Shown here piece by piece: positions 4,056 through 42,839 of a DNA stretch of 64,000 bases. The notes beneath the pieces are model-generated. The model saw only the letters and a program-made list of their open reading frames with translations. It was not told where the DNA came from and did not search any database. This DNA comes from a virus (taxonomy: Duplodnaviria > Caudoviricetes): positions 3,904-67,903 of the IMG/VR virus record IMGVR_UViG_2537561606_000002; one strand, given 5' to 3'. Position 1 is the first letter of the stretch; every line of letters starts with the position of its first letter. The position numbers were made by a program, and so were the translations under genes.

Positions 4056-4083
4056 AATCTATTTATTAAAATATAATAAATAT

Positions 4084-4551
4084 TTAGATATCGGAATGGA
4101 TTTTTGATTTTGCAATTTGAAGTTGTTCTATGGGTATTGTATAGGATTTTCCGGAAGCTAGTTCACACAGAACGGTTTTTCCGTCTTTAGCGACTTCTTT
4201 AACTTTAGCAAGCATCCCGCCTACGTTAACTTTGTTTTTTGCGTAAACTCTCATAATAAGACCTGGTTTTGGTATTTGTGAACCACTTCCGTATGATGAT
4301 TTCCTTTGCTCTCTTACTTCTTCCTCGAATTTTTTGTGTCGAATTTCTCTTTGTTTTATTTCTATTTTTTCTTTTTCGGAAATTTCTTTTTGATAATTGA
4401 TTTTATTTCGGTCATGTTTTGCTTGATCGATCTTTTTTTCACGAGGCACCCTTACGTCCTCGTTTGTTCTAGTATTTCGAAAGGCCATATAGTCGCCTGA
4501 CTTTCCATGAACGACTACCTTTTTTTTGAGTAGGGAATTTGTATTTAACAT
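4084..4551 (-). CDS. Basic hypothetical protein, possible internal head protein
   Basis: ORF of 155 aa; KKKVVVHGK N-terminus, SH3/KOW-like C-terminus, IAKS motif. Confidence 0.5.
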   Translation of the reverse strand: MLNTNSLLKKKVVVHGKSGDYMAFRNTRTNEDVRVPREKKIDQAKHDRNKINYQKEISEKEKIEIKQREIRHKKFEEEVREQRKSSYGSGSQIPKPGLIMRVYAKNKVNVGGMLAKVKEVAKDGKTVLCELASGKSYTIPIEQLQIAKSKIHSDI

Positions 4552-9096: not shown

Positions 9097-10571
9097 TTAT
9101 GCTCTATCCGTATTCTAACCGTACGGTTTTGAAAAGTGTTCCCAAACGTAAAAGAAATGTTTCCGTTATCATCATAATAAAATGAAATCGGTGAAACCCA
9201 CTTGCCTTGATTATCTGTTACAGTACCGAATACGGAAATGATTTTATTTGCTAAACCCGTAGATAGATTACAATTTCCTAAATTATCAGTCGTTGTCTCA
9301 AAATATGAATTTTGAATACGAGTTCCCGAATTTAAAAACCCTACTCCCAAAAAAACCGTACCCACTTCGGAAATCATCTGGTATACGTTTAAAAGATTAG
9401 ATTCTAAATATAACCTTACCGAGTTGGCGGAAGGTGCGATAGAAATTTCCGTAAAGTTAGGTGAATCGGAAACGATCGTGTTTGTGGTAACTATATTTTC
9501 AGTGGAAGGAATCCCTAAAAAATACCAGCTTTCTTTTTGTTTCGAGAATACGAGTTCATAAGATCCACCGTCTAAATCCAATTGCCAGTCCTCTTCTAAA
9601 TTCTCTATTTTTTTGGAGTTTCTAAGTAAGGTGATAGGATAAGTTCCCGCTTTATTGGATAGATCCAGGATTCCGATTACGATTGCGTCTTTTGGATCGT
9701 TTGGTAAGGATACGTTAAAACTACCACCTGAAACGTCACATAGTACACGTTCATATTTCAAGGCGCTATAGTTTGTAGTTATAACGTTTGAGTTTTTTAA
9801 GGAACCGAAATTATTTTTCCAGCTACCGTCTCCGGATAAAAACTTTTCTGTGTCCGTTGTCAGAGGGGTAGGAACGAGTCCTTTTTTACCGTTTGATTGA
9901 GGGGTTGCACCCCCAAATGTTTCGTCTAATGCAATCGTTCCGGAACTGTCCGGTAGTATATAATCCCTTTTTTGGCTGGAGTTACTTTTTAATACGTTTT
10001 TAATTCTACCTTGATCCGATAATATTTCCAGTTCACTTTCTGAGTTGATTCCAGCATACCCACCCGATTTATTTTTTTCGTTTTTTAATTGGTATTGTGG
10101 ATGATCGTCAAAACTAAGTCCGATCAATTCGGAATGAAGATTCGTTCTAGCTGTTGTTTTTAACCACCTTCCGGGTTGTGAAAAATTTAGGTCTTTCGGA
10201 AGAATCGTTCTTAAAACGTCTATTTCATCCGGAACGGTCGCGTTTGAATCCGAGTCATACTGATACAGTGTAAGTTCTTCTTCTACTTGTCTAATTTGTT
10301 TGTCTTTTCTTTGGTCGGGTGGAATATTTCTAAGTTCCTCTAAATTTTGTACAGGAGTATTCCAATTTGTTAATACTTCTTTTTTTACCCATTCTAAATT
10401 TACCGCATCCCTTCCGTCGATAGGGGATGCGGTTTTTAGATTGGTAAGTCCTGAATTATCGGGAAGTCTTACTTCTATCCCTGTGGATACGGCTTTTAGA
10501 ATCGGTCCTTTTTTACCCAAAAAAACCTCTGAACCGATTCCTTTTAGTAAAAACTGAAATACCGGATTCAA
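9093..10571 (-). CDS. Tail fibre protein
   Basis: DAVNL, DDHPQY, LPDSSGTIAL, KFLSGDGSW and CDVSGGSFNVSLP phage fibre motifs. Confidence 0.7.
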   Translation of the reverse strand: MNPVFQFLLKGIGSEVFLGKKGPILKAVSTGIEVRLPDNSGLTNLKTASPIDGRDAVNLEWVKKEVLTNWNTPVQNLEELRNIPPDQRKDKQIRQVEEELTLYQYDSDSNATVPDEIDVLRTILPKDLNFSQPGRWLKTTARTNLHSELIGLSFDDHPQYQLKNEKNKSGGYAGINSESELEILSDQGRIKNVLKSNSSQKRDYILPDSSGTIALDETFGGATPQSNGKKGLVPTPLTTDTEKFLSGDGSWKNNFGSLKNSNVITTNYSALKYERVLCDVSGGSFNVSLPNDPKDAIVIGILDLSNKAGTYPITLLRNSKKIENLEEDWQLDLDGGSYELVFSKQKESWYFLGIPSTENIVTTNTIVSDSPNFTEISIAPSANSVRLYLESNLLNVYQMISEVGTVFLGVGFLNSGTRIQNSYFETTTDNLGNCNLSTGLANKIISVFGTVTDNQGKWVSPISFYYDDNGNISFTFGNTFQNRTVRIRIEHK

Positions 10572-13490: not shown

Positions 13491-13519
13491 TTGACATTAC
13501 TCACTACTACGACGATAAT
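13491..13519 (+). promoter_or_regulatory. Sigma70-type promoter for NYN moron
   Basis: TTGACA (13491-13496), 17-nt spacer, GATAAT (13514-13519). Confidence 0.75.
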
Positions 13520-13525
13520 GATATT

Positions 13526-13590
13526 ATATCACCCCTATGGTAATGCGTAGGGCGCGGGGCTATCTCGTAAGAGGTAGCCCTTGCTTTATT
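13526..13590 (+). ncRNA. Candidate structured leader RNA (two hairpins) upstream of NYN gene
   Basis: CCCTA/TAGGG stem (13533-13552) and GGGCTATCTC-GTAA-GAGGTAGCCC stem with GNRA loop (13557-13580), followed by TTGCTTTATT. Confidence 0.5.
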
Positions 13591-14223
13591 ATGACTCCTA
13601 AGCGAACTTTTGTCTACATCGACGGATTTAACTTTTATTACGGTAAAGTTAAAAGTACAAAATATAAATGGGTAGACTTTGGAAAACTTTGCACTTTTCT
13701 TCTTCCTAAAGAAAAAAATAACATTATAAAAATTAAATATTATACTGCTATGGTTAAACCTAGGCAAAATGATCCTGGACAGTTACGACGCCAACAAGTC
13801 TATATTAAAGCATTAAGAACAATCCCAAATTTCGATATTTATTTCGGACATTTTCTATCTCATCCAATCAAAATGATGCGTTCCGATGGAAAAGGTTTTG
13901 TAGAAGTTATAAAAACGGAAGAGAAAGGATCGGACGTAAACTTAGCCTCACACATGATTTTTGACGGTTGTAAAAATGAATATGATACCGCTGTAATTAT
14001 TTCAGGAGACTCAGATCTTTTAGAACCGGTTAGAATTATAAGAAACGATTTAAAAAAGTCTGTTGGTTATTTAAATCCGCAAAATAATCCTAGTAAAGTT
14101 CTTTTACAGAACTGTGATTTTATGAAATCCATTCGATTTAATACAGTTATAAACTCACAGTTCCCGGACACGGTTATAGACAAGGATGGAAACCAAATTA
14201 CCAAACCACTTGAATGGCATTAA
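13591..14223 (+). CDS. NYN domain (LabA/DUF88, PIN-like) RNase
   Basis: YIDGFNFYY, EEKGSDVNLA and ISGDSDL acidic PIN motifs. The likely start is ATG 13591 rather than 13537, which lies inside the leader hairpin. Confidence 0.9.
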   Translation: MTPKRTFVYIDGFNFYYGKVKSTKYKWVDFGKLCTFLLPKEKNNIIKIKYYTAMVKPRQNDPGQLRRQQVYIKALRTIPNFDIYFGHFLSHPIKMMRSDGKGFVEVIKTEEKGSDVNLASHMIFDGCKNEYDTAVIISGDSDLLEPVRIIRNDLKKSVGYLNPQNNPSKVLLQNCDFMKSIRFNTVINSQFPDTVIDKDGNQITKPLEWH

Positions 14224-19304: not shown

Positions 19305-20756
19305 CTAAAGTCTTACAGGTACGTTTGTAAACACGTGGAATTTTTCAGGAGCTAACTCTTGTAAGACGCTATACCCTTCTACGATTCCAAGCCTTGTTCG
19401 TAAAGCACCACCCGCACCATACGGAAACAGTGTTTTTGTATAGGGTAGAAGTTCGGACAAAATTAGAGTTCTTGTTTCGTCACTGGAAGATTTTGTGTTA
19501 AAGTCCCCCAAAACCATAATCGTGGTTCCTGGAAGATCCTCGTTTAGATCTTGTACGATCGTAACCGCTCCCACTAAATTCCTTTCCACCGTTTTCATAT
19601 ATAGAATCAAGCTGGAGCTTGGAGTAGTCTCCCTAAATATCACATAACGTGTTTCCAGAATACCTCCTACTCCCGGGGTTATACTTAACTCCGCAGCTCC
19701 TCCGTTTGGAATGGATATGTTTTCTACATTGGAAGGACCTGAAAAATGTCTTAAATTCCCAGCACAAACCCGGTAGCTATAATCTCCTACATAGGATCCG
19801 GTGAATAAAGAATTAGGAACGGAAGGAATTACAGTAAGGGTAAAACTAGGTGTAGGAGGAGCTTCCTTATCACTCGTCGGCCCTTCTACACGATTTCCGT
19901 TTTGATCGTAACGCATAGGAACACCCCATTCATGACTATCCATCCAAATATCATCGTCAAATTGTATAAAATTATTTTTGGAATTGGAATCGATCACACC
20001 ATATACGTTATTCGACAAGGAAACGTTTCCAGGTGAATAACTGTTATTTTGAACCACCATTCCGGAACCGCTACGATCAAATGTTTGATCGTATAAGGCT
20101 TTGGTAGAAGGGTGCATTTTTGCATAATTCGTAAGTCCAAAATATCTGGTACGAATTCTAGACGTAATATATTTCATTTGATCGATTGAAGGTAATGAAC
20201 CCCTACAATCCGTATAAAATTCATTCCCTAAATTTTTGGCATGGGTTTTAAAACCGTCTTGTTCGTTTCTATTGTGTTTTTTATTCCCGAACCAAAATCG
20301 TCGCATTTGGTTTTCCATTGCTCTTTTTAAAGCTGCATTTGACTGTATCAGTTCCGGATCTTGTATATTCTGTACAGTATCGACCACCCTGTTAAAAGAA
20401 AATCCTTCCGCGCTATAGTTCACCTCGCTATATATTCGTTCCATCTGTGCGTCTGTGAATGTGGGTTCGTCGGATTGTCCGATATTCGAAGTATGAAACC
20501 ATCCACCACCATGAGATTTGTACCGGTTATATTCCGCTATGGTTTGAGTAATTTGTCGTCTTGGTACTTCGTTAAAAAATTTAAAATCCTTATCCGTGGA
20601 GGCAAGTGCCACAAAAACCTTATCCAAAGATTGCATGGATAATGTGGCACCCGATGAGTTAAAATCTACAAACGGAGAAGCTCCATTCAAAGCCGTGTTT
20701 GCCTGAAATCCTTTTTGAATTTCCACTAACTGTTCTAATGTATAGGGTCCTGTCAT
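19305..20756 (-). CDS. Major capsid protein (SPO1/Twort-like)
   Basis: IQKGF...GATLSMQSLD, AEYNRY, FWFGN, EQDG and DCRG motifs; follows protease and scaffold. Confidence 0.88.
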   Translation of the reverse strand: MTGPYTLEQLVEIQKGFQANTALNGASPFVDFNSSGATLSMQSLDKVFVALASTDKDFKFFNEVPRRQITQTIAEYNRYKSHGGGWFHTSNIGQSDEPTFTDAQMERIYSEVNYSAEGFSFNRVVDTVQNIQDPELIQSNAALKRAMENQMRRFWFGNKKHNRNEQDGFKTHAKNLGNEFYTDCRGSLPSIDQMKYITSRIRTRYFGLTNYAKMHPSTKALYDQTFDRSGSGMVVQNNSYSPGNVSLSNNVYGVIDSNSKNNFIQFDDDIWMDSHEWGVPMRYDQNGNRVEGPTSDKEAPPTPSFTLTVIPSVPNSLFTGSYVGDYSYRVCAGNLRHFSGPSNVENISIPNGGAAELSITPGVGGILETRYVIFRETTPSSSLILYMKTVERNLVGAVTIVQDLNEDLPGTTIMVLGDFNTKSSSDETRTLILSELLPYTKTLFPYGAGGALRTRLGIVEGYSVLQELAPEKFHVFTNVPVRL

Positions 20757-21451
20757 ATTTGATTTTCCTTATATTCTTCGTTACAGAATTTTTGAACTCT
20801 TTCGGATAGTTTGTGTGTGGATTCAAAAAAAGAAAGATCCTCGATCCGGCATTTTCCTTGTTTAATTAGCTCAATGATTCTGTTCGAAATTTTGTCTTTA
20901 TCTAAGTGGCTTATCACACCGTTTAGATTCGATTTTTGAATCTGAGTCGTAACAGGATTTTTTGTTTCGTTTTTTTCTTTGGATAAATTTCCGATTTGGG
21001 ATTTTAAGGTTAAAATTTCCGTTTTTAGATTCGTATTCTCTTCTGATTTTTCCAAAAGATAGGAAATCGCTTCGGCAAGCGTTTCTTGACCTGCTTTAAG
21101 GATTTCGAATGTGTTTTTAACCTCTTCAAAAAATAGTTCTGATTTTTGAATTTTTTCTTCTAATTCTTTCTCTTTTTTTTCTTTGGATTTGGTTTCTTCC
21201 TCCGAATTCTCAAAATAAGAATTTACGGTATCTCCCGCAAATACAGTAGCTTCGGCCTCCTCCAAACCTTGAGAAAGTGCCCAAATTTCTATTTTTTCCT
21301 TTTCCGGTAAAAGACTCCCCGCTTCTAAAAGTTTTGTCACCTCACCGTTTAATTTTTCCAGATCCGGTTTTGTATCTTGAATATTCGATTTTGATATATT
21401 CGTATTCTCAGATACTTTTTCTTTGAGTCGTAAAATTGCGCTTTTAAGCAT
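20753..21451 (-). CDS. Capsid scaffolding protein
   Basis: Charged coiled coil between protease and capsid with many [ILV]xKS motifs. Confidence 0.7.
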   Translation of the reverse strand: MLKSAILRLKEKVSENTNISKSNIQDTKPDLEKLNGEVTKLLEAGSLLPEKEKIEIWALSQGLEEAEATVFAGDTVNSYFENSEEETKSKEKKEKELEEKIQKSELFFEEVKNTFEILKAGQETLAEAISYLLEKSEENTNLKTEILTLKSQIGNLSKEKNETKNPVTTQIQKSNLNGVISHLDKDKISNRIIELIKQGKCRIEDLSFFESTHKLSERVQKFCNEEYKENQI

Positions 21452-22379
21452 ATTTTTCCCCGTTCAGTTTTAAAAACAATAGATCCGATAACGTCTCTAA
21501 TTCCTCTCCTTCTAAGTGATATTCCTCAGAAAGTACGGATTTAAGGACAATCGATCCTAGATTCATTTCCTTATTTTTAAACCGATTTGAGATATCGGAG
21601 AAGATGGTTTTTAAAAATCGCTCTTGTAGTGTCGGGTCTAGTTCTATGATTTTAGTAAAAAACTGAAGTTTTTTTTCCACTCTTTGAATTCTTTCCACTA
21701 ATTCTTTCTCTTCTTTTAGGATTTGATTTCGGTTTTTATACCCTTCCTGATTTGAATCCATTTCTTTATCTATGTCTTTTAAAAATACCGCACCTTTTAA
21801 AAGTTGTACTGACGTATTCGGGTTATACACTTCTTGTATGGGTGCAATCGCACATTTTTTAAGTTTGATTTTACGGATTTTATTTCCTTGTTTGTCGATG
21901 GGTCTTGCGTATCCGGATACGGATGCACCCCATCCGTGAAATCCTGCTTGTAGTCCTTTTCTAATTTCTTCGGCGAATTTATTTTCCGGAAATAAATTTC
22001 CCAGGATATACAATCCTTCGTCTGAAATTTTTAAATTTGCGGGAAAATCGTCCTTGTATCCGATCTGTACGGCTCCCCCTATGATCGATTCTATTTTAGA
22101 TTTTTGTAATTCGACTAAATGAGACGCGGTCAGTCTATTTTGGGATCTGAGTTCTGTGATTTCCTTGTCGATTATATCCGTTAAATGGTTATAATCAAAA
22201 TAACCCTCGTTTAAGAACTCCTTACGCATCAAAGGGTCTTGGTATGCGGATTTGAGGATAATTTCGCCTTGTTTGTCTTCTTCTTCCGTGGACGCTTTGA
22301 CTAAAATTTTAATCGTGCCGCTTCTTTCTTCGGGACTTGCTTTTAAGATTTGAAAAGGATGTAAAAATACTGTCTCCAT
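21444..22379 (-). CDS. Prohead protease
   Basis: ASTEEEDKQGEII, DYNH, GASVSG and AIAP..VYNPNT herpes/HK97-type protease motifs. Confidence 0.85.
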   Translation of the reverse strand: METVFLHPFQILKASPEERSGTIKILVKASTEEEDKQGEIILKSAYQDPLMRKEFLNEGYFDYNHLTDIIDKEITELRSQNRLTASHLVELQKSKIESIIGGAVQIGYKDDFPANLKISDEGLYILGNLFPENKFAEEIRKGLQAGFHGWGASVSGYARPIDKQGNKIRKIKLKKCAIAPIQEVYNPNTSVQLLKGAVFLKDIDKEMDSNQEGYKNRNQILKEEKELVERIQRVEKKLQFFTKIIELDPTLQERFLKTIFSDISNRFKNKEMNLGSIVLKSVLSEEYHLEGEELETLSDLLFLKLNGEKYA

Positions 22380-22430
22380 AAAGAAGACTTTAAACGGTTT
22401 AAAATCGTATCGGAAAAAAAAGACTTACTT

Positions 22431-22691
22431 TTATCTATATTCACCCAGTAAAAAACGAAATAATACCTTAAAATAACTACACTGATAAATAATTAAAAAA
22501 TAACCGGCAGGATGGATTTTTAAACTTTTAATCACTCTTGCAGTAAAACCCATTAAAAACCAGTTCCCGGAAAGATAATAACCTTTTACGGGTAAACCCA
22601 TGTAGAACAGGTTATATATTACACCTTCCTCTATTTTTAATTCAGGGTCCATAATATATTTTAAGACGTCTGGAACTTTTATTTTTTTCAA
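22431..22691 (-). CDS. Hypothetical protein
   Basis: ORF of 86 aa with CCGATA 34 nt upstream. Confidence 0.4.
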   Translation of the reverse strand: MKKIKVPDVLKYIMDPELKIEEGVIYNLFYMGLPVKGYYLSGNWFLMGFTARVIKSLKIHPAGYFLIIYQCSYFKVLFRFLLGEYR

Positions 22692-22886
22692 AGTTTTGTT
22701 TCAATTATGAATCATGTCCCTTTTTTATCGGATGAATTTTTAAATCAGATTTATTTTCTATTTGAATGTATGACTTACTTTCAAAAAGCTTGTTATACTC
22801 AATTAATTCCATTTTAATTAGTAGGGTTATCGAATAACTTCTACTGTAGTTTTTGGATTTTTATAGTCCGAAAACCTTTTTTTGTT

Positions 22887-23276
22887 TTAAAAAGAAGTGA
22901 TTAAATACGCCTTTAATCTTCCTTTTATAGTATCTTTTGGATTCCAGTAGACTTTTGCTTGAGTCGCCGTATTTACACGATCATAACATTCCACTAAATA
23001 TATTCCTTCCATCGAAAAGTCCAAACTGGAAGTATCTAACCAAATATCAGGTGATATCGTATTTCCGATCGTTAGAATGGGTAATTCGTTAAAAGCTTTA
23101 TCCACTTTTACGATCAACTTGTTTACAATCGTTCCTATCGGTAATATTTCGCCTAGGTTGTAACTTCCGAGTGGGCTTGAAAAATCCAATTCCACCACTT
23201 GTGAGATTTTTAGACTTTTTTCCTGACTTTCCGTTAAAATTTCATCCGACGAAAACGGACCTAAAAAAGCGGGCAT
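22887..23276 (-). CDS. Virion beta-sandwich protein (decoration/fibre-associated)
   Basis: LPIGTIVNKLIVKVDKAFN..LTIG motif. Start ATG 23276 is favoured by the 27-nt spacing from CCGATA. Confidence 0.55.
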   Translation of the reverse strand: MPAFLGPFSSDEILTESQEKSLKISQVVELDFSSPLGSYNLGEILPIGTIVNKLIVKVDKAFNELPILTIGNTISPDIWLDTSSLDFSMEGIYLVECYDRVNTATQAKVYWNPKDTIKGRLKAYLITSF

Positions 23277-23321
23277 ACTTGTCAATATAGCAAAATTGGA
23301 ATGTATCGGTTTTCTTTTTTA

Positions 23322-24875
23322 CTATCTCTTAATTTCGGATTTAAAGTCTAAATTCGGTCCCCATTTAAAGGAAATTGTCGTATTCGCACGCGCTTGACCT
23401 GGGCTAAACTCATCCACTACGTCCGTTATATATCCAAATTTACAGATTTCATTCGTATTGAATGGATATTTTTTTAGAGGATCAATATCGATCTGAAAAG
23501 GGATTCCCGGTCTTATGGGTATAAACGGAATTTCAAAACTTCCGTTTGTGATTTTTAATTCCTCTAAATCACAAAATATAGAAAATAATAAATCCCGAAT
23601 GCTAGAAAGTTCCGTTTTATAATTCTCTTTACTCGATTGTCTTAGATTTTCCTCTCTAAAAATAAGACCCGGGATTTTTACGTGTAAAAACTTTGGTCCA
23701 AAAATCGACCGGATCCTATCCTCATACTTAGGTTCTGAAAGCACAGTCCCAAAGGTTTGAAACGTGTTTTGAATCACATGTACACCCGACACTATATTTT
23801 CCTCATTTTCCTCGATTCTATAATTTTGAATATCCTCTAAATCGAAACTATAAACCGCATCTATCCTAGAACTTTCTAAGTCCCTGTATTTACCGTCTGT
23901 TCCAAACATATAAAATGGAGTAGGTCGAAATATCACTTTGGATTCCTTATTTCCAACGTCATAGGTTTCGAGTCGATTGGATCCGATTTCCCCAAAACTT
24001 ATTCCCTGTCCGAATACTCCCTCTATATCAAAAGTCTCTAATGGATCTACAAATAGTTCATAAAGTGGCTCACAAAGATAGGACCTTAGTATCTCCCAAA
24101 AGTTTACATACTGACCGACTGTAAAACTGGACAATACTTGAGACTCGTATACGAACTGTTCCGTGTATGCCCTTCTCGGTAATAGTATGGAAAGTAAGGC
24201 GTTCGGATCGTTTTCAGTTGTAGTCGGTTTTAAGACGTTATGATCACAATATCTTGAAACGTTTAATAGATTACAAAAAAATTCATCCCAAAAGTTTTTA
24301 ATTAAATCACTAAGTTGTCCCTGTAAAAACACTTTTGTTGCACTCGTTATCACTCCTGCATAAGTACTTTGTGTTCTAGTTCCGGGTCTTCCTTGGGTTC
24401 GTTGGTAGTCTATAAAAAAATCTGTGTCTGTTAGGATCGTTTCTAGACTCGTTATATGTACGGATTTAAAAGAATTCGCTTCTGGTGAAAAATCTTTTGT
24501 GATTGTCTTAATTTTACCGGAATTGAGTTTTTTAAATCCGTTTGATTTTGATTTACCGTTTGAATTGTCGTAATAGAGTAAAACGATACTTCTGACTCGA
24601 AATATCTCCTGAAAACTTTTAGTTTCAAACGTTTTCATTTCCGAAATTGGAAGTGACTCGTCTTCCCCCACCTGTACGATATATTTTTCTTGCCAGGGAA
24701 TTGTAAGTGTGATTCCACCTCTTCCAGGACTTAAAGATCTTTGTGACCGTATATGAGTCACATATTCCACCGGAAAAAAAAGATTTTCAGAGGAACCGGG
24801 AAGCCTGATTTCTATCGAAAACCGTTTAGGTGGAATGGAAATATCGGTTCTTTTGGATATTGATAATTTCTCCAT
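23322..24875 (-). CDS. Baseplate hub protein (gp27-like)
   Basis: Adjacent to the spike; EPLYELFVD, IFRPTPF and IRPG motifs. Confidence 0.7.
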   Translation of the reverse strand: MEKLSISKRTDISIPPKRFSIEIRLPGSSENLFFPVEYVTHIRSQRSLSPGRGGITLTIPWQEKYIVQVGEDESLPISEMKTFETKSFQEIFRVRSIVLLYYDNSNGKSKSNGFKKLNSGKIKTITKDFSPEANSFKSVHITSLETILTDTDFFIDYQRTQGRPGTRTQSTYAGVITSATKVFLQGQLSDLIKNFWDEFFCNLLNVSRYCDHNVLKPTTTENDPNALLSILLPRRAYTEQFVYESQVLSSFTVGQYVNFWEILRSYLCEPLYELFVDPLETFDIEGVFGQGISFGEIGSNRLETYDVGNKESKVIFRPTPFYMFGTDGKYRDLESSRIDAVYSFDLEDIQNYRIEENEENIVSGVHVIQNTFQTFGTVLSEPKYEDRIRSIFGPKFLHVKIPGLIFREENLRQSSKENYKTELSSIRDLLFSIFCDLEELKITNGSFEIPFIPIRPGIPFQIDIDPLKKYPFNTNEICKFGYITDVVDEFSPGQARANTTISFKWGPNLDFKSEIKR

Positions 24876-24898
24876 AATATAAATAGAATATAGTTATG

Positions 24899-25582
24899 TT
24901 ATATCGGAGGGGAAGTTTTAGAAGGTGGTAAGGGCCCTGGGTTATATCCGTGACCGTGTTCGTTAAATGATTTTTTATTGGAGATGATATCTTTTTCAGA
25001 CTCGATTAAACCACTAGATTTTATATCCCCATCGACTTCTAAACTTCCGGTAATTTTGGTATTTGCGGTTATTTCTAAATCGTTTAGATTAATCTTTGCT
25101 TTTGAGTTTAAAAAATCGATTTCAAGAATTACTGTCTGGTCCTGGTCATACACCTCTATCTTATTTGTGGTTTGTCTGGTTAAATAACCGGATTCATGAA
25201 AATCGATTATATCTTTTTCAGGATTCAAAAAAGGATATTTTCTAGAAAACTCGTTTAGGTTTAATAAATCGGAATCTTTGGTCGGAAAAGGAAATACTTT
25301 CGTAACTACGGGACTACGATACGAACCTCCTATAAACTCGATTAAAACGAGTTGATTTTTTTTGATCCCATAAGCCCTACCGTGCGCTTTTCCATCCGGA
25401 TATAAAAAGGGACCTAACGTTCTTACCTTTAAAAAGATTTCTCCGAAAGTGGTGAGTACGTTCACACGAAAACGAGGAAGTACTTCGGTAACGGTTGCAA
25501 ACATACTAGGTGTAATTTTTGAATCCTTAGAATGCGGTTTTTGTTCAAACTCAAATGTGTCGTTTGTAAAGTTTCCCCTCAT
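24899..25582 (-). CDS. Central baseplate spike (gpV/gp45-like)
   Basis: N-terminal OB-fold (QLVLIEFIGG..SPVV), beta-helix, C-terminal HGH metal-binding apex. Confidence 0.85.
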   Translation of the reverse strand: MRGNFTNDTFEFEQKPHSKDSKITPSMFATVTEVLPRFRVNVLTTFGEIFLKVRTLGPFLYPDGKAHGRAYGIKKNQLVLIEFIGGSYRSPVVTKVFPFPTKDSDLLNLNEFSRKYPFLNPEKDIIDFHESGYLTRQTTNKIEVYDQDQTVILEIDFLNSKAKINLNDLEITANTKITGSLEVDGDIKSSGLIESEKDIISNKKSFNEHGHGYNPGPLPPSKTSPPI

Positions 25583-27462
25583 ACGGATAGTATATAACTA
25601 GTTCCGGTTATCGACTCTATCTTTATGTTAAAATAATACGTATCCTTTTCCTGTAGAGTATTCAAAAAATTAACCGTTTTTACCCTAGGGTCTGATCTGA
25701 ATTGACTTAATATATTTTGAATGTGTTTATTTTTTAACATTTCGTCTAAAATTTCCCCCGGTAAAATCGGATTACCTAACGTTTTATCCGAAAGATAAGA
25801 ACCTTCCACCATGTCGATTATATCTAACTTTTCGTTGACTAACGCCTCATCCCCCATAACCAAAGCGAGATCTCCAGTAGGTGAGATTTCAATTCCCCTA
25901 TTTTCGTTTAATTTTAGGTCACACCCGATAATTGCGATTTCTAAATCTTTCGGATTCGGGTTATCGGGTAAGGGAGTATATATATTCGTATTTTTTCCGT
26001 AGGGAATTTTAATCGCCCTTTTGTCTAAATTTACAGTATCCCTACTCATATTAAATCTTGCTAATGCTTGACCTAAGTTTTTATCTCCTAATGTTTTTTC
26101 AGCTACGTTTTCCCAGCTATCACCTGGACTTACTTGATAGATTTTATATTCGTTGTCTATGGATGAAGTATTCAAAAAGGCTTTGATTTCTGTTAAAATC
26201 TCTTGAATTGTAATCGTATATCTATACACGTCGTTATCGATCCAATCGCTTAGATCCGCGTTGGGCTGTAAGGACATCGCCTCGATGGATCCGGAAGAAT
26301 CCACAGGGATTAAAACTTGTGCAATTAAACGAGTTAAGGAATTGGAATCATTGATTGCAGTATCTAGGTTTTGTCTAAATTCAGCCTCATGACTTGCGGA
26401 TTTTTTAGAAGTAATCTCTATTTTCTCCAAAATTTCGTCTTCGCTGAGTCCCCTTTTTTTGGTTTTGATTCCTAATTCGTTTTTAGCGTTTTCGAATGTT
26501 TTTCTTGCTAGTTTACCTTGTGTATTAAATTGATCCTTCATCCGCGGCCAGGACGTCAGTACCCTTTTTGTAGAACTGGCAAATACTTGTACTCCGTTTG
26601 CAACTCCTAGTAAGGCACCTGATAGTTTTAGAGGTAGGTTGACTATATTTTCCAGCTCGTTCATAAGCCCGGATATGGTTCTAAAAACGTTAAAATTGGA
26701 TCTTACCGATTTACTTGTGATTTGTGTTTCTAGTTCTTTTACGGTTACAAGGGTAAGAGAATACTTGTAAGTATTTGTATCGGAAACGGATCTTGAAATC
26801 GTAAATCCGTTATTTGGTATGACTACCTCTACGATTCTATTCCTGTCGTAATCTCGAAACACTAAAGCATGCGTTCTAAAACTGAATCTTTTTTCATAAA
26901 ATAGGGAAACGATTTTAGAAGCTTGGGAATCGTTTGAAGTATATTCTACCCTTTCTAAACTTTTACTATAATGGAGTAAAAACATAAAGTCCTGGAATTC
27001 CTGTAGACCCGATCGAAAGTCTCCCCCTCCAAAACTCAAATAACTGCTTCTTAATTTGTTATAATAACTTGTAAGCTGATTTTTAACGATACTTTTAGCG
27101 GCTGTAAATGCGGACTGTACAAATCCAGATCCTCCCGAAATAGAACTACTCGGTTTTGAGGGGAGTCCTAAATGGTAGATATGAAATTCACCCTCTAGTT
27201 TTATTTCGTGGTTATCGGGTCCGTAGTCTATGACTACACTCGAACCGAACGTTTTAGAAATACTGGTTCTATACTTAAAATTTTCAGTATATGTTAGGGG
27301 TCCGTTTACAAAAAAATATTCGTTACTCTCGATTGTATTTAGGTTATAGTCTCCGTTTTTTTCTTTTTCATAAAAGGCAAACGAGAATACGTTTTGAGGC
27401 TCATACGAATTGAGTCCTAAAAGTGTATTTACACCCGATTGAGCAAGATCCGTGATTCCCAC
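25579..27462 (-). CDS. Baseplate protein: tube-initiator-like region + LysM + gp25-like domain
   Basis: LysM YQVSPGDSWENVA..LG; C-terminal GDLALVMG...SDPRV gp25-like motif. Confidence 0.7.
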   Translation of the reverse strand: MGITDLAQSGVNTLLGLNSYEPQNVFSFAFYEKEKNGDYNLNTIESNEYFFVNGPLTYTENFKYRTSISKTFGSSVVIDYGPDNHEIKLEGEFHIYHLGLPSKPSSSISGGSGFVQSAFTAAKSIVKNQLTSYYNKLRSSYLSFGGGDFRSGLQEFQDFMFLLHYSKSLERVEYTSNDSQASKIVSLFYEKRFSFRTHALVFRDYDRNRIVEVVIPNNGFTISRSVSDTNTYKYSLTLVTVKELETQITSKSVRSNFNVFRTISGLMNELENIVNLPLKLSGALLGVANGVQVFASSTKRVLTSWPRMKDQFNTQGKLARKTFENAKNELGIKTKKRGLSEDEILEKIEITSKKSASHEAEFRQNLDTAINDSNSLTRLIAQVLIPVDSSGSIEAMSLQPNADLSDWIDNDVYRYTITIQEILTEIKAFLNTSSIDNEYKIYQVSPGDSWENVAEKTLGDKNLGQALARFNMSRDTVNLDKRAIKIPYGKNTNIYTPLPDNPNPKDLEIAIIGCDLKLNENRGIEISPTGDLALVMGDEALVNEKLDIIDMVEGSYLSDKTLGNPILPGEILDEMLKNKHIQNILSQFRSDPRVKTVNFLNTLQEKDTYYFNIKIESITGTSYILSV

Positions 27463-27490
27463 TTTTTCTATATTGTATGTAAATTGTCTT

Positions 27491-27509
27491 TATCGGGAAT
27501 TTCCCGATA
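27491..27509. promoter_or_regulatory. Back-to-back CCGATA elements driving divergent baseplate operons
   Basis: Palindrome TATCGGGAATTTCCCGATA, 28 nt from the start at 27462(-) and 30 nt from the start at 27540(+). Confidence 0.7.
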
Positions 27510-27539
27510 ATTGTTTTTTGAATATACATTCAAAAGTTA

Positions 27540-28730
27540 GTGGCCCTACCTTACATTCCCAAAACGGAAACAGAATACAGACTAGCAATTCAAAACTATC
27601 TAATCGCTTCAGGTTCCAGGCTTTCTAATTTTAATCCGGGTTCTCGTATATATACCTGGATCTGTGCGATTGCAAGCGTCTTAGCAGAAGGAGATTTAAG
27701 AACCTTAAACGGATTTGATTATTCGATCCGGGAAGGAATATACAACGCATTAGGTTTTAATAGACTTCCCGGTCTAAAATCAATCGGTATCGTTCGAATA
27801 GAATATAAAGACCACTTAGAAAATATAGAAATTCCTATTTTCACTCTAGACCTTTTTGGTCTTTTATTTGAATCCATATCCCCCGTTACTCTTTTAGTCG
27901 GACAAGAATATTTAGAAATCGAGATTAGGGCCAAAGAACCTGGCACAGACTACAATATTCGTAGACTATCCATCAATACGGAAGAGGGATTAGGTTCTTT
28001 AAATATTCAACTGCCTACAAATACTAGGGTTTGGAATCCGAGTGATTTTACGGGAGGTAGCAACAAAGAGACCGAAGAAAGTAGACTTAAAAGATTTAGA
28101 AATTTTATCATTTCTCTGGGTAGATCCACTCCACTCGGTATCTATACGGCCGTGATTTCGATTCCTGGGATTGCGGGCGCTCAAATCACGACGAATAAAA
28201 ATCCGTATTCCGGTACTCTTGAATTTGGTTGGATCAATATTTATGTATCCGATGGTACCTCAAACCCACCCCAAAGTCTTTTGAACTTGGTTTTAAAAAC
28301 CATCGAAGGGGACTTAAACGATCCTGATAATTTTCCTGGCTATTCAGCAGCCGGTACTTGGGTAAACGTTTTTAAAATTCCAGTTCTTGGAATTACAGTT
28401 CGTTTTCGTCTGGAGGTTTTAAATATCTCTCAAGTTTCCTTAGAGGAAGCGAGTACAATCGCAACGAATGCACTTACCTCCTATTTAAATACTCTTTCCA
28501 TCGGTTTTGACGTTTTACTCAAACAAGTTGAGGCGACGATTCTAAAAAGCCATTCCGATTTTTATAAAGTAACGATCCTAGAATTCTACGGTAAACTTGC
28601 AAATCAACCAGTCCCAAACCCGATTCCGTTTCCCAGTGACATTTCGGTTCCTCCTACCTATCTTCCCCGTACGGGAGGATCTTCCCTAGGTGTAATTACA
28701 TGCGAAGTTTCTAAAGTAGATTCGTTATGA
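27540..28730 (+). CDS. Baseplate J-like wedge protein
   Basis: NFNPGS, PGTDYN, GGSNKETEESRLKRF and GWINIYVSDG motifs. Confidence 0.9.
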   Translation: MALPYIPKTETEYRLAIQNYLIASGSRLSNFNPGSRIYTWICAIASVLAEGDLRTLNGFDYSIREGIYNALGFNRLPGLKSIGIVRIEYKDHLENIEIPIFTLDLFGLLFESISPVTLLVGQEYLEIEIRAKEPGTDYNIRRLSINTEEGLGSLNIQLPTNTRVWNPSDFTGGSNKETEESRLKRFRNFIISLGRSTPLGIYTAVISIPGIAGAQITTNKNPYSGTLEFGWINIYVSDGTSNPPQSLLNLVLKTIEGDLNDPDNFPGYSAAGTWVNVFKIPVLGITVRFRLEVLNISQVSLEEASTIATNALTSYLNTLSIGFDVLLKQVEATILKSHSDFYKVTILEFYGKLANQPVPNPIPFPSDISVPPTYLPRTGGSSLGVITCEVSKVDSL

Positions 28731-29320
28731 ATAAATTACTCGATAAGCTACCTCAGTTTAATCCGACGGACCCAACCTTTCAAAGTCTTTGGGGAAATCT
28801 AGATAGACCCGAACTTTCCCCCGTTACGAATATCAACGATATAAACAAAGGTGCCCTCTATAACAGTGTGGAATGGCATTTATCCTTTCAGGAGCTTACT
28901 TCTAAGTGTTCCACTCTCACACAATCGGAGGGGCGTTTTTTGACCAAATGGGCAAACCTTTTAGGAATCGAAAGACCGACCGGAATGAACGATCCCGAAT
29001 TTGTGGGATATATCCTAGGTTATGTGTTATCAAACGAACCTACTCTTACAAAAATCTCTCAAATTTTCCAAAGACCCGATTATGCGGTTTTAAGGTGTAA
29101 CGAACTTGGATTTACAAGCGACGTTTCCGCAACCGATACGGGTCTTTTTCTTCCGGGTCCTAACACAAAAGCGGTCTCAAGTATCGTAACCCCTCTATTA
29201 GGAGTTAGTTATATACTCGTAGAGGATTTCTCATCCATTTCCAACGTTCAAATCACGGAACTTAATCGTATCTTAGCGGCGGGTACTGCCGTATACATAG
29301 GGGCTAAAAATGCAGACTGA
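28727..29320 (+). CDS. Baseplate wedge protein (gp7/P2 I-like)
   Basis: EGRFLTKWANLLGIER..MNDPEF and ILAAGT motifs; follows baseplate J. Confidence 0.7.
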   Translation: MNKLLDKLPQFNPTDPTFQSLWGNLDRPELSPVTNINDINKGALYNSVEWHLSFQELTSKCSTLTQSEGRFLTKWANLLGIERPTGMNDPEFVGYILGYVLSNEPTLTKISQIFQRPDYAVLRCNELGFTSDVSATDTGLFLPGPNTKAVSSIVTPLLGVSYILVEDFSSISNVQITELNRILAAGTAVYIGAKNAD

Positions 29321-30083
29321 AATTTCACTGACCAGTAACGAAATAAAAACATACTACCAAAACGTATTCCAAAAGATCAGTGCCGATGACATAAACAGGC
29401 TTTCAGGAGCTTTGGGTGACGATTCCTATGTTCGAATTCTTTTAACTTCGATCCTTTATAGTATCGGTAGAAATACCGACACTGCTATCGGTTTTCAGGT
29501 AAGATTACAAAATCAAAATACGATTTCAGTCGATAACGGTATTTTCATAAAATCGGATTCTGTTTATATTTTTCCGGAAATCTCCCTTACTCCGAACCCG
29601 AATTCGGTTGTAGGTATTTTTGAATTGGAATTTGAATCCGTTTTGACGGATGAAAAGTCCGTCGCCGTTTTTAACTCTCAAACGGAAAGATTTCAGCCAC
29701 AACCAAAACCCACTCGTAAAACGTATAGAACCCGTCTTTATGAGCAATGGTTAAATACGAACGGTAATCCTTTAATCACTCAAAATAGAATCGGTCTTTT
29801 AAGATATACGAGAAACGGTGGAAATATTACAAATCTTGTAAGAACTCTTCCCGTATATGATCCGAAACTTGTAGGCGTAGACGTCGTTTTAAATCCGAAC
29901 ATATTAGATAACACTTCCTTATCCAGTGCTATAAACTGGCTTTATAATTATATAGAATCCAAAAACTTCATTAAAACCACTCCTTCACCCGGATTTGATA
30001 ACGCTAATTTTAGGATCAGGACTCAAGGAAATTTTGCGTATTGGAGTAAGGACGAGGGAGCAAACTGGCTCCCTTTCGCATAA
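29310..30083 (+). CDS. Tail fibre attachment/baseplate-associated protein (short form, 257 aa)
   Basis: Follows the wedge genes; ends in Asp-box-like WSKDEGANW and the slippery site. Confidence 0.65.
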   Translation: MQTEISLTSNEIKTYYQNVFQKISADDINRLSGALGDDSYVRILLTSILYSIGRNTDTAIGFQVRLQNQNTISVDNGIFIKSDSVYIFPEISLTPNPNSVVGIFELEFESVLTDEKSVAVFNSQTERFQPQPKPTRKTYRTRLYEQWLNTNGNPLITQNRIGLLRYTRNGGNITNLVRTLPVYDPKLVGVDVVLNPNILDNTSLSSAINWLYNYIESKNFIKTTPSPGFDNANFRIRTQGNFAYWSKDEGANWLPFA

Positions 30084-30139
30084 CCCCACCTTTTGGCCCT
30101 TCCTCACCCGTAAGCGGTGCGGGAGGTCATTGGGTGGGG
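30071..30139 (+). other. -1 programmed ribosomal frameshift signal
   Basis: Heptamer C CCT TTC (30071-30077), 6-nt spacer, long GC-rich hairpin 30084-30139; the -1 frame is open into the Cys-rich ORF. Confidence 0.8.
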
Positions 30140-30520
30140 AATTTTGGTTCGAATCGTTATGACGTATATCCAAAAGGTACCTATTCTGTGGGAGATACCT
30201 GGCACGTCGTGGATGCTCATCTTGATTATGGTACGACAGTAAACGACTGTGATCTGTGCGGCGGTTATGATTCCTGCTATCCTCTAGGACCTTGGTTTAC
30301 TTGTCCTGATTGTCCTGGAGGATACTCACAATCTACAAGTATCGGTCTTTGTTGGACGGGTGGTGGGTTTGTATTTTGTTGTACTTCCACTTGTTGTAGA
30401 CATCTATGCAATTCTTGTTATATATCGAATTGGTATACTCGGTATAGAGTTTTGAAATACGAATTTTTTACCTGGAAACTACTTTCCACATACCAAATTC
30501 AAGGGCGTTTTTGGAGTTAA
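30077..30520 (+). CDS. Cys-rich C-terminal extension (12 Cys) added by -1 frameshift
   Basis: Frame open from the slippery site: RITPPFGPSSPVSGAGGHWVGNFGSNRY...CDLC...CPDC...CCTSTCCRHLCNSC. Confidence 0.7.
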   Translation, partial: RITPPFGPSSPVSGAGGHWVGNFGSNRYDVYPKGTYSVGDTWHVVDAHLDYGTTVNDCDLCGGYDSCYPLGPWFTCPDCPGGYSQSTSIGLCWTGGGFVFCCTSTCCRHLCNSCYISNWYTRYRVLKYEFFTWKLLSTYQIQGRFWS

Positions 30521-30524
30521 ATAT

Positions 30525-30686
30525 ATGAATGAAAAAAAAGATTTAGATCTTCGTTTAGAGATTTGTTTTGCTTGTCCTTTACTTCTGAAAGGTTTCCTTT
30601 TGGAGCGTTGTAGCGTTTGCGGTTGTTTTGTTAGATTAAAAACAAAATTAAAATATGAGTCTTGCCCGATTAAAAAATGGATGTAA
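30525..30686 (+). CDS. Small Cys-rich metal-binding protein, DUF6171-like (53 aa; missing from ORF track)
   Basis: MNEKKDLDLRLEICFACPLLLKGFLLERCSVCGCFVRLKTKLKYESCPIKKWM. Confidence 0.8.
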   Translation: MNEKKDLDLRLEICFACPLLLKGFLLERCSVCGCFVRLKTKLKYESCPIKKWM

Positions 30687-30690
30687 GGAT

Positions 30691-31035
30691 ATGAGTTGTT
30701 GTGGAGGTAAAACAAACACTATGAATCAGGATTTAATTTTTCAACAAATCGGGCAGGTTACTCAAATTGCCAAAAACAAAGGATTATCCGAAAAAGACGC
30801 ATCAAACGAAGCGTATACATTTGTTAAAGGTCTACTATCTAAAACAAGTGAAATCATTCAAAAAAACCCTAGTTTAAATAAGGAACTCATTTTTCATCAA
30901 ATGTCCACACAAGCTTTCGGTCTCTATCATTCTAAAGACGAAACAGAAGAGATTTTAGAATCGGTTTTTAAATCCATTTCGGAACAGATAAATTTGTCTA
31001 AAATTCTTTCGCAAGAGTTTTCAAACCTAAAATGA
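30691..31035 (+). CDS. Hypothetical protein with N-terminal MSCCGG
   Basis: Likely start ATG 30691, directly after the previous stop; helical body. Confidence 0.6.
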   Translation: MSCCGGKTNTMNQDLIFQQIGQVTQIAKNKGLSEKDASNEAYTFVKGLLSKTSEIIQKNPSLNKELIFHQMSTQAFGLYHSKDETEEILESVFKSISEQINLSKILSQEFSNLK

Positions 31036-41370: not shown

Positions 41371-42839
41371 GCGGCACTTCCCTGCGAATTTTCTTTCCCA
41401 TTTTCAATTGTAGTCTTTTTAATTTCTGAGTTCTGAATAAGATCCGGATACACTTCGTTTACGAATTTTTCATACAGTATCTTTTTCGTTCCTTCGTATT
41501 TGAGAGGATCTGAGTTTTGTTCGTAATATTCTAATTGTTGTTTAAACAACTTTGTCTTACCCCACACTAAAAAACATTTGTAAGGATCTAGGTTGTTTAA
41601 CTCTTCTATGGGTGTTTCTTGGATCGTCTTACTCTCGTTATATTTGGATTCAGTTCGTAATGATTTATTTTGTTGTTCATTTCGCTTTGGATTTTTTTCA
41701 GTAGGTTTTACTTTTCTTTCAAATAACCTAGACCAAAACTTAGAGATGGATTCAGGACTCAAAGACTGCTCATACCAAAACTGGGGATCTTGTTTTCTTA
41801 GTTGGATGAGGATTTGAATTTTACTTTCAATAACGTTCCATTCCCCTTTAGAAAACTCAAAGAGTGAGCTTAATGCTTTTAGTTCCGAGTCCGGTTGTCC
41901 CATTTCACTTCCATGTTCTTTTAAATAGTAATCCTGAAATTTAATAAGCCAAGCAGCCGGAAATTGAAAACGTGGATTCTCTTTTTGTTTGTGCTGATCT
42001 TGATTGTGTTCTTCTCTGTGCGTTTTTGCAGGCGGGCCGTACTCTCTAGAAGTATTTTGTATTTGATTAAAGAGTACTTGTTTTGATAGTCCTTGGTATA
42101 TAGTATTTGATAGGGGTTGATTTTCCAGGCCTGGATTTACCGCGACTGGATTTTCCAGGTGCGGGTTTTCCAAGTGTGGTAAATCGATTCTATGATTTTC
42201 TTCTCTCTGAATTTTTATTTCTTTTTCTATTAAAAGTTCCTTTTGTTCTTCTCTGTGCGCTTGTGCGGGCAGGCGGTACTCTCTAGAAGTATTTTGTATT
42301 TGAGAAGAGAGTATTTGTTTTGATAGTCCTTGGTATATAGTATTTGATAGGGATTGATTTTCCAGGCCTGGATTTACCGCGACTGGATTTTCCAGGTGCG
42401 GGCTTTCCGAGAGTGGTAAATCCGGTCCTGGATTTTCCACTCCAGGACTTTTTATTTCTTCTTCTGCAAAAAGTTCCCCTTGTTTCAATTCCTCCTTTTT
42501 AGAACGGTTCGGCACAGATTGAACGTTTGGTTTTTGAGACTCTTCGAAAAAATACCAACCCGATTCAAATTTACCGGTTACAGTATTTCGAGTTTTTCGG
42601 TACTCTGCATATCCAAAGGCAACTAACTCCTTAAACCCGGATGAGATACTTGACTCTTTGTCGGATTTCAGTTTAGTCATCGTTTTTACGGACATTCTCC
42701 AGTTATCCGGATAACGTAAGGCAAGAAGTAAAATTGCGGTTGCCTTCAGGCTTAAGCGTCTATCATCGATAAAATTATTTTTGACTATCGAGAAGTTCCG
42801 GTCTTTTGATACCCGATACACTCTTTGATTCTCATTCAT
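41367..42839 (-). CDS. Phage replication initiator (winged HTH, lambda O-like architecture)
   Basis: RNFSIVKN.FIDDRRLSLKA...ELVAFGY wHTH, followed by PxxENP repeats. Confidence 0.8.
   Translation of the reverse strand: MNENQRVYRVSKDRNFSIVKNNFIDDRRLSLKATAILLLALRYPDNWRMSVKTMTKLKSDKESSISSGFKELVAFGYAEYRKTRNTVTGKFESGWYFFEESQKPNVQSVPNRSKKEELKQGELFAEEEIKSPGVENPGPDLPLSESPHLENPVAVNPGLENQSLSNTIYQGLSKQILSSQIQNTSREYRLPAQAHREEQKELLIEKEIKIQREENHRIDLPHLENPHLENPVAVNPGLENQPLSNTIYQGLSKQVLFNQIQNTSREYGPPAKTHREEHNQDQHKQKENPRFQFPAAWLIKFQDYYLKEHGSEMGQPDSELKALSSLFEFSKGEWNVIESKIQILIQLRKQDPQFWYEQSLSPESISKFWSRLFERKVKPTEKNPKRNEQQNKSLRTESKYNESKTIQETPIEELNNLDPYKCFLVWGKTKLFKQQLEYYEQNSDPLKYEGTKKILYEKFVNEVYPDLIQNSEIKKTTIENGKENSQGSAA
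42007..42422. repeat. About 179-bp direct repeat (42007-42185 / 42244-42422) containing 15-bp-period GGATTTTCCA-like iterons
   Basis: Two near-identical copies 237 bp apart; recurring GGATTTTCCAGG / GGATTTACC / GGGTTTTCC units. Confidence 0.9.

Follow-up and report, generated by a model that had tools for sequence, protein, structure and literature searches.

Additions of Ig-like domains to phage proteins were reportedly described by Fraser et al. in 2006. Frameshift-made extensions of capsid and tail-tube proteins, together with the tail assembly chaperone pair G/GT, are textbook cases of recoding in phages, as set out in a 2016 recoding review (PMC5009743). According to this review, ribosomes slip near the 3' end of phage capsid and major-tail genes, giving products that share an N-terminus and differ by an extra C-terminal domain. 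In G/GT, which belongs to the tail module, a conserved X XXY YYZ heptamer is the place of a -1 slip, and short and long forms result in a fixed ratio. G/GT is located just upstream of the tape-measure gene, and neither of its products is in the virion. Here we analysed a stretch of 64,000 nucleotides (the window; positions 3,904 to 67,903 of IMG/VR record IMGVR_UViG_2537561606_000002, Caudoviricetes), in which open reading frame (ORF) A, coding for 257 aa, is followed by a Cys-rich ORF that is annotated as a separate gene. It is very likely, in our judgement, that both are one recoded gene of an LE1-like Leptospira phage-plasmid, and we are, if anything, slightly more confident that the sequence C CCT TTC at their junction is the site of a programmed -1 ribosomal frameshift.

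Like T7 10A/10B, T3, Lactobacillus A2 and Listeria A118/A500/PSA, the locus has its candidate slip at the 3' end of a structural gene. However, this gene is predicted to encode the shoulder of a baseplate-distal fibre or receptor-binding protein (RBP) and not a capsid or tube protein, and the added domain is Cys-rich, without Pfam match and without Ig-like or other fold match. The heptamer type is shared with G/GT, whereas the gene studied here lies downstream of a Baseplate_J gene and a phrog_4015 gene, on the strand opposite to the rest of the tail module, and ORF A has a predicted RBP-shoulder fold. E. coli dnaX and IS3/IS911 share with this locus the heptamer, the spacer of about 6 nt and the stem-loop, as well as a Shine-Dalgarno (SD)-like element found in many of the relatives; they differ in the heptamer used, the host and the gene class, and the SD-like element is missing here in 4 of 26 segments. 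In dnaX, this element is spaced about 10 nt upstream. The ORF A model aligns (Z 8.9–5.0) to the N-terminal domains of shoulder-neck-head RBPs (p2, 1358, A-1(L), HFTV1, Mtd) and of TssK, but their head is encoded in frame, while here it would be reached only by the predicted frameshift. The closest in-frame counterpart is gp46 of phage LE1 (543 aa), which occupies the same position after baseplate J and a gene of about 200 aa and is 28% identical over ORF A residues 68–180 (E 4e-14). The shoulder region is thus shared in frame, but gp46 is a single open frame with an unrelated C-terminus, no heptamer cassette and no Cys-rich domain.

The literature search turned up no description of this site, nor of frameshifting in phages of Leptospira. 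No paper combining "LE1-like" and "frameshift" was among the matches listed, and the word "frameshift" does not occur in PMC6078989. Among the papers listed in our searches, we also found no report of a tail fibre or RBP completed by ribosomal frameshifting, and "tail fiber", "tail fibre" and "baseplate" have 0 occurrences in the accessible part of PMC5009743. The proposed mechanism is canonical, and the novelty lies in the gene class, in the appended domain and in the host clade.

The last codons of ORF A in the window are CTC CCT TTC GCA TAA, with a single sense codon (GCA) between the heptamer and the TAA at 30081–30083. A first-pass annotation, made from the letters of the window, had proposed a canonical -1 frameshift that appends the Cys-rich ORF, and its description of the site held in detail: the heptamer is in register at 30071–30077, one codon before the stop, and is followed by a 6-nt spacer (GCATAA). 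The -1 frame is closed by a TAA at 30047–30049, open from 30050 to 30517 and terminated by TAA at 30518–30520. The first ATG, GTG or TTG in this frame is the annotated GTG at 30134–30136, which is buried in the stem, as had been noticed, and judging from its position and variation is probably not a real start. The ORF arithmetic reproduces the proposed product lengths, with a predicted 257 aa for the 0-frame product and 403 aa (256 + 147) for the shifted one. The predicted junction peptide is ...NWLPF/RITPPFGP, and the diagnostic peptide is NWLPFRITPPFGP. Transcriptional slippage was considered and rejected, as no homopolymer longer than 3 bases exists at the site.

In order to compare, we gathered 53 loci (numbered with L below) by protein or DNA homology to ORF A or to the extension; the heptamer was never used as query, and some of the 53 are one contig fetched twice. 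The set includes the deposited LE1-like phages CZ214, 80412, 5399, LinZ_10 and Lin_34, plasmids of L. interrogans, L. noguchii and L. weilii, contigs of L. adleri and L. ainlahdjerensis, and contigs from IMG/VR and metagenomes. The conservation of the heptamer in homologues, suggested as a check in the first-pass annotation, was found in 52 of the 53 loci, all with CCCTTTC, one codon, a stop and a -1 frame open into the RY[DEG]V[FY]P motif; the sole locus without the cassette is phage LE1. The codon and stop in the spacer are GCA TAA in 49 loci, and GCG TAA, GGG TAA and GCG TGA in one locus each. The cassette is retained in the metagenomic loci L043, L046 and L048, whose extensions are just 36–47% identical to that of the window. 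In the most distant loci (L051, L052 and L053, all metagenomic), the linker that leads from the heptamer to the GHW motif has about 30 additional residues. Upstream of the heptamer, the ORF A frame extends over just 151 open codons in L006 (L. weilii pLiSL18), where the PLSDB table has no CDS, and over just 188 in L018 (IMG/VR contig); by sequence, ORF A seems to be disrupted in both, with cassette and extension intact.

Of 26 distinct upstream segments, 22 have an SD-like core, which starts 12–19 nt before the heptamer; the segments without it are those of L039, L048, L051 and L053. Since the element falls in conserved Gly/Glu codons of ORF A and is missing in these four segments, the GGGAG of the window is taken only as a possible third stimulatory element, upstream of the site.

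The codon usage at the heptamer was examined in 32 distinct ORF A sequences, each taken over its final 250 codons; this excluded loci whose open frame is shorter, among them L006, L018, L029 and L051–53. There are 14 alignment columns with an invariant degenerate residue, and 12 of them use 2–6 codons. Only the Pro and Phe of the heptamer are codon-invariant (CCT in 32/32 and TTC in 32/32), whereas, for example, another invariant Pro is encoded by CCA (12), CCT (11), CCG (5) and CCC (4), and another invariant Phe by TTT (19) and TTC (13). The codon preceding the CCT varies (CTC 17, TTC 6, CAC 4, CGC 3, TAC 2, and ATC in L051–53), but it always ends in C although its residue changes, while NNY codons elsewhere end in C at 32%. 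On this codon pattern, the invariance is unneeded by the ORF A protein and is what a tandem-slip site would need. The first-pass annotation had supposed a sub-stoichiometric display; the one printed statement on efficiency that we found, for E. coli in PMC4066793, has C_CC.U_UU.C in its survey as a pattern said to "exhibit high level frameshifting" and counts H_HH.U_UU.Y with the most efficient motifs.

The heptamer is followed by a G+C-rich hairpin. Its outer stem pairs CCCCACC (30084–30090) with GGTGGGG (30133–30139), and the minimum-energy fold adds a U-G pair to give 8 bp; inner helices and a GUAA loop are also present in the window. The 90-nt fold has an energy of -37.1 kcal/mol (z -3.27), and none of 200 dinucleotide shuffles is as stable. 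Segment 30079–30144 is the most stable of 10,656 overlapping 66-nt windows on the plus strand (-36.6 kcal/mol; mean -9.0, standard deviation 4.3). The stem was described in the first-pass annotation as G+C-rich within AT-rich DNA, and this agrees with its top rank and with the 37% G+C of the window; the GUAA loop described there is present in the window but is not conserved beyond the closest relatives. The next most stable 66-nt folds on the plus strand are at 13519–13608, 55321–55410, 42361–42450 and 10381–10464 (-32 to -27 kcal/mol). Rfam gave nothing at the site except a chance sub-threshold snoRNA row.

In all 29 distinct junctions, a hairpin begins 6–7 nt past the heptamer. The fold energies range from -17.8 to -41.2 kcal/mol, with z < -2 in 27 of 29 junctions (mononucleotide shuffles); the exceptions are L048, which is the weakest (-17.8, z +0.24), and L008 (-35.4, z -1.68). 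In L051 and L053, a stem of wholly different sequence is found in the same place (CGCCGTCAGG with CCTGACGGCG).

The covariation of the stem, another check suggested beforehand, was analysed in 17 equal-length sequences (15 distinct rows) with an RNAalifold structure of 18 pairs. Across the 15 rows, 97% of cells pair, in comparison with 40–60% when the 3' partners are slid by 1–3 columns. Four pairs have changes on both sides: 36-48 (A-U 7, U-A 7), 30-54 (U-A 5, A-U 4, G-C 1, G-U 1, U-G 1, three unpaired), 18-65 (A-U 12, G-U 2, G-C 1) and 33-52 (C-G 7, U-G 4, U-A 1, three unpaired). The covariation score and the paired percentage are matched by 0 of 500 shuffles, and the number of double-change pairs by 36 of 500; the rows are related, so these shuffle counts are not probabilities, but the slid controls retain the same relatedness and are far lower. 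The covarying columns are mostly third codon positions of the -1 frame, and are therefore synonymous sites whose changes are coordinated. At column 65, a compensatory change from U to C converts the annotated GTG to GCG.

Between the heptamer and this GTG, the variable positions in the -1 frame are 15 of 19 third, 6 of 18 first and 2 of 19 second codon positions. The linker peptide PFR(I/V)TPPxGPxSPVxGAGGHW is conserved, and even the most distant loci retain its beginning, PFRITP. The linker is coding and conserved, which indicates that -1 translation begins at or before the heptamer and not at the annotated GTG. Upstream of the heptamer, a stop closes the -1 frame within 2–7 codons in the loci examined, except in L053 (open for 19 codons), and the short upstream -1 peptides are not conserved.

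The 1.4 kb around the site is 100% identical to plasmid p1_L200901116 of Leptospira mayottensis 200901116 (NZ_CP024873.1), a replicon that is circular, 94 kb and LE1-like according to PMC6078989; on this identity, the window is the LE1-like phage-plasmid p1 of that strain. Pfam and PHROG searches with the ORFs of the window place the site in a phage baseplate module (Table 1). The Baseplate_J gene is the first of a plus-strand baseplate operon and ORF A is the third gene counting from it; a 627-aa baseplate protein (phrog_4033 and phrog_975) is encoded on the minus strand. The 197-aa gene between Baseplate_J and ORF A occupies the slot that the second wedge protein has in the P2-like gene order. 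The Baseplate_J gene and then a gene of the 197-aa type precede ORF A in all relatives examined, and the order of Baseplate_J, the gene of about 200 aa, ORF A and extension is kept in the distant loci L043 and L046.

An AlphaFold (AF2) model of ORF A built from 23 sequences has a predicted local distance difference test score (pLDDT) of 70.5, with residues 186–242 below 50. In a comparison with 48,161 chains by VIA-align, 58 chains have Z >= 2 and nine have Z >= 5, where Z < 8 can reflect a common arrangement and Z 5–9 is middling. All nine chains with Z >= 5 belong to the tail-fibre, RBP-shoulder or TssK class, and they match model residues ~20–187. The tail fibre of cyanophage A-1(L) (8kec_A) has Z 8.9 with a root-mean-square deviation (rmsd) of 4.5 over 93 aligned residues, and SPP1 gp22 (2xc8_A) has Z 8.6 with rmsd 3.5 over 104. 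They are followed by the HFTV1 tail fibre (Z 7.7 and 7.4), the RBPs of lactococcal phages 1358 (Z 6.4) and p2 (Z 5.8), TssK (Z 6.2 and 5.6), Bordetella phage Mtd (Z 5.8) and IglD (Z 5.0). The next unrelated row is at Z 3.7, and rows below Z 4 are mostly unrelated proteins. Foldseek puts the same class first, weakly (2xc8_B, E 3.4e-3; 8kec_A, E 4.7e-3). Because the match list is coherent and the gene sits in the baseplate operon, residues ~20–187 of the model are likely an RBP or tail-fibre shoulder domain, and "tail protein", the assignment of the first-pass annotation, agrees with this match to N-terminal shoulders and with the place of the gene. Searches found no Pfam family for ORF A and no sequence relative with a solved structure. 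Its relatives at 141–450 aa are all 257–286 aa long (17 of 17 clusters), and no in-frame fused form was found at 451–2000 aa, a negative that the tool itself notes as weak evidence.

The extension of the window contains 12 Cys. All 23 members of the extension family have an even number of Cys (12, 10, 8 or 4), and Cys are lost pairwise, for which reason disulfides are favoured over metal sites, though the counts 12, 8 and 4 would also suit Cys4 sites. The earlier wording, "metal- or disulfide-rich", is therefore best kept in its disulfide part, and the metal part is less favoured. The family has conserved flanks, GHWxGNxxxxRYDV[FY]PxGxYxxGDxW and NTCxVxNWxTxYxxxxYxFxxW, and the middle third alone varies among distant relatives, in length and in Cys content. 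It had also been asked whether the Cys domain is hypervariable; this is not supported, as each comparison shows stronger conservation of the extension than of ORF A: identities are 93 vs 86% with CZ214, 72 vs 61% with 80412 and 57 vs 43% with 5399-LE1, and 40–47% vs 32–35% in distant loci.

The model of the extension is all-beta with a pLDDT of 84, and no convincing fold was found for it. The best Foldseek hits in the PDB are flavivirus E proteins (E 0.013, TM 0.27–0.30; unconvincing), the best in BFVD has E 4.7e-3 with TM <= 0.32, the best VIA-align Z is 4.7, and ESM Atlas gave no usable match. Pfam gave no family at E <= 0.01, the structural matches include no Ig-like chain, and a search of proteins of solved structure found no relative by sequence (best E 0.37). 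An exhaustive search of representatives with the extension gave 11 matches in 1.84 billion proteins, nine of which are family members of 106–164 aa. The repeat proteins P0023 (2056 aa, 35 stretches) and P0030 (629 aa, 11 stretches), both without trustworthy Pfam, were set aside as compositional. Longer in-frame fused forms of the extension were not found at 262–2000 aa, again weak evidence by the tool's note.

Table 1. Features at and around the candidate frameshift site (positions of the window).
Feature	Position	Strand	Remark
Baseplate_J/gp47-family gene	27540..28730	+	Pfam PF04865, E 1.1e-09; phrog_6 baseplate wedge subunit, E 1.1e-42
197-aa gene, phrog_4015 (annotated function unknown)	28727..29320	+	Overlaps start of ORF A by 11 nt
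ORF A, 257 aa, 0-frame product	29310..30083	+	phrog_4351, E 1e-143
GGGAG, possible SD-like stimulator	30056..30060	+	Ends 10 nt before heptamer
Candidate slippery heptamer C CCT TTC (P site CCU, A site UUC)	30071..30077	+	X XXY YYZ register in ORF A frame
-1 frame extension, 147 codons + TAA	30077..30520	+	Pro/Gly-rich linker, then Cys-rich all-beta domain (predicted)
6-nt spacer GCATAA	30078..30083	+	Last 0-frame sense codon + stop; read from sequence
Putative stimulatory hairpin	30084..30139	+	Outer 7–8 bp G+C stem, internal loop, inner helix of ~11 bp
GTG, RefSeq start of WP_081586379.1 (Cys-rich ORF)	30134..30136	+	Inside 3' arm of stem

Some other genes of the element are recorded here. 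After the extension, a 53-aa DUF6171 protein with CxxC...CxxC spacing is encoded at 30525–30686 on the plus strand (Pfam E 1.1e-07; phrog_13558), and its gene overlaps the next ORF at 30655–31035 (+; phrog_4073). The DUF6171 gene is present in close LE1-like relatives and absent from the distant L043 and L046; there, the extension is directly followed by an opposite-strand ParB-like gene. It is conceivable that the DUF6171 protein is linked to the Cys-rich domain, e.g. to its folding. The head genes and the remaining tail genes are on the minus strand (19305–27462), opposite to the operon of baseplate J and fibre, and the two modules diverge from the intergenic region 27463–27539. The phage-plasmid also carries two very large plus-strand ORFs, at 50011–54474 (1487 aa) and 55045–60546 (1833 aa). 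In L004 (L. interrogans pLiSL3), a gene for a leucine-rich-repeat protein (3490–4149) is located a few genes past the cassette; it is not in the window.

The conserved heptamer, the covarying hairpin, the coding linker and the lack of a start codon in several relatives support the canonical -1 frameshift, and a ribosomal slip is favoured because it is the only mechanism that fits all loci. A ribosome on C CCU UUC would have its P-site tRNA-Pro on CCU and its A-site tRNA-Phe on UUC, and the hairpin, 6 nt downstream at the mRNA entrance, would resist unwinding and impede translocation; the SD-like GGAG about 10 nt upstream may add to this effect in most relatives. In a fraction of ribosomes, both tRNAs would re-pair on CCC UUU and decoding would resume with CGC AUA ACC, yielding a product of 403 aa that consists of ORF A residues 1–256, the Pro/Gly-rich linker and the Cys-rich beta domain. 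Unshifted ribosomes would read GCA (Ala) and terminate at UAA after 257 aa. ORF A may then form the baseplate-attached shoulder of a receptor-binding fibre and the extension its distal, disulfide-stapled head, and the virion would receive headed and headless subunits in proportions that depend on how often ribosomes slip. The comparisons show the signal, its conservation, the covariation and the coding status of the linker; we infer from them that a slip takes place, and likewise its efficiency, what the two isoforms do and the disulfides. We give about even odds to the extension serving as the receptor-binding head in a fibre of shoulder-neck-head layout. A further idea, which we offer as speculation and think rather unlikely, is that the slip ratio is itself the purpose of the arrangement: subunits of 257 aa and 403 aa would form mixed trimers with fewer than three heads per fibre, the head being disulfide-stapled with an unseen fold and the ratio being set by the hairpin and shiftable by temperature.

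Alternatively, there may be two separate genes, the Cys-rich ORF being self-initiated at GTG 30134, at a CTG or TTG, or by reinitiation at the ATA overlapping the TAA, with the heptamer as a by-product of two overlapping coding frames. We regard this as improbable. RefSeq gives the GTG start, but the linker before it has coding periodicity and residue conservation, and the codon, buried in the stem, reads GCG in five loci (L007, L029, L031, L035 and L042) with a compensating CCCCGCC on the 5' arm. Most loci have a CTG or TTG two codons upstream of the heptamer, arising from the 0-frame N(C/T) TGG and preceded at 4–6 nt by a GGAG-like element, and in L. weilii RT1 the Prokaryotic Genome Annotation Pipeline (PGAP) has placed a start at such a TTG; however, L048 (TAA CTT CCG CCC) and L051/L052 (TAA TTT CAT CCC) are without ATG, GTG, TTG or CTG between the stop and the heptamer. 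For reinitiation, the codon overlapping the stop is GTG in L047, but starting at ATA leaves the invariance of CCT and TTC and the invariant preceding C unexplained, and a covarying hairpin of about -30 to -40 kcal/mol over the initiation region would hinder a start there. The hairpin could instead be an intrinsic terminator or another RNA element that ends the ORF A transcript, the downstream ORF being unexpressed from that mRNA. In the window, the G+C-rich stem is indeed followed by AATTTTGGTT, but relatives do not keep the T-run (they have AATATT, AATTTA, AGTCTC and AACATC) and its bases evolve as codons, the consensus scan called neither a terminator nor a promoter at the hairpin, and the downstream frame is protein-conserved across all relatives, which makes this explanation very hard to sustain. 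A sequencing error or a recent frameshift mutation that splits one gene into a pseudogene deserves almost no credence: a 1-nt indel would indeed leave two neighbouring ORFs in frames 0 and -1, but 52 of 53 loci share the junction, these loci come from many species, assemblies and metagenomes and have 29 different junction sequences, and no in-frame version was found in the homologue searches.

The frameshift may also be real while the extension is no virion head, but an assembly factor absent from particles (as in GT) or another decoration of the baseplate. This is unlikely in our judgement, although several observations speak for it. In the P2-like gene order, the gene after the fibre encodes the fibre assembly chaperone. 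The extension has no match to a receptor-binding fold, and its conservation exceeds that of ORF A, which would be uncommon in a host-range determinant. In phages LE3 and LE4, a "tail fiber assembly-like protein" of 180 aa follows a 404-aa tail-collar protein, as described in PMC6078989. On the other side, the variable middle third lies between conserved flanks, as a binding surface would, and the even Cys counts suggest an extracellular, oxidised domain. The specificity head of RBP and TssK-class proteins is C-terminal to the shoulder, and the extension would be attached at just this place.

From the above, a -1 frameshift that completes a fibre protein remains the preferred interpretation, but the following points weigh against it. 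The CTG/TTG codons with their GGAG-like elements and the PGAP-annotated TTG leave room for independent initiation locus by locus, and the representative P0031, known from protein alone, begins MAGGGMTGHW and may have its own start. No in-frame fused homologue joining ORF A and the extension was found in the searches given above, the hairpin of L048 is weak, and the sole statement on the efficiency of the heptamer comes from E. coli and not from a spirochaete. The function of ORF A is read from a predicted model with middling Z values, and the extension, for which no fold match was obtained, is called a receptor-binding head from its position.

For the LE1-like Leptospira phages and plasmids examined, a group that includes elements of pathogenic species, the two-gene annotation with its probably false GTG start should become one recoded gene. 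The range of recoding is widened by a well-supported case of -1 frameshifting in the baseplate fibre/RBP gene class, and the loci form a natural series for the study of frameshifting in spirochaetes, with a conserved cassette, different stems (L051, L053) and a weak stem (L048). If mixed trimers of the kind proposed above exist, the head ratio could shift by temperature between the environmental and mammalian phases of the host. If the extension is the receptor-binding head, it would give an obvious handle on the host recognition of leptophages, which is almost unexplored.

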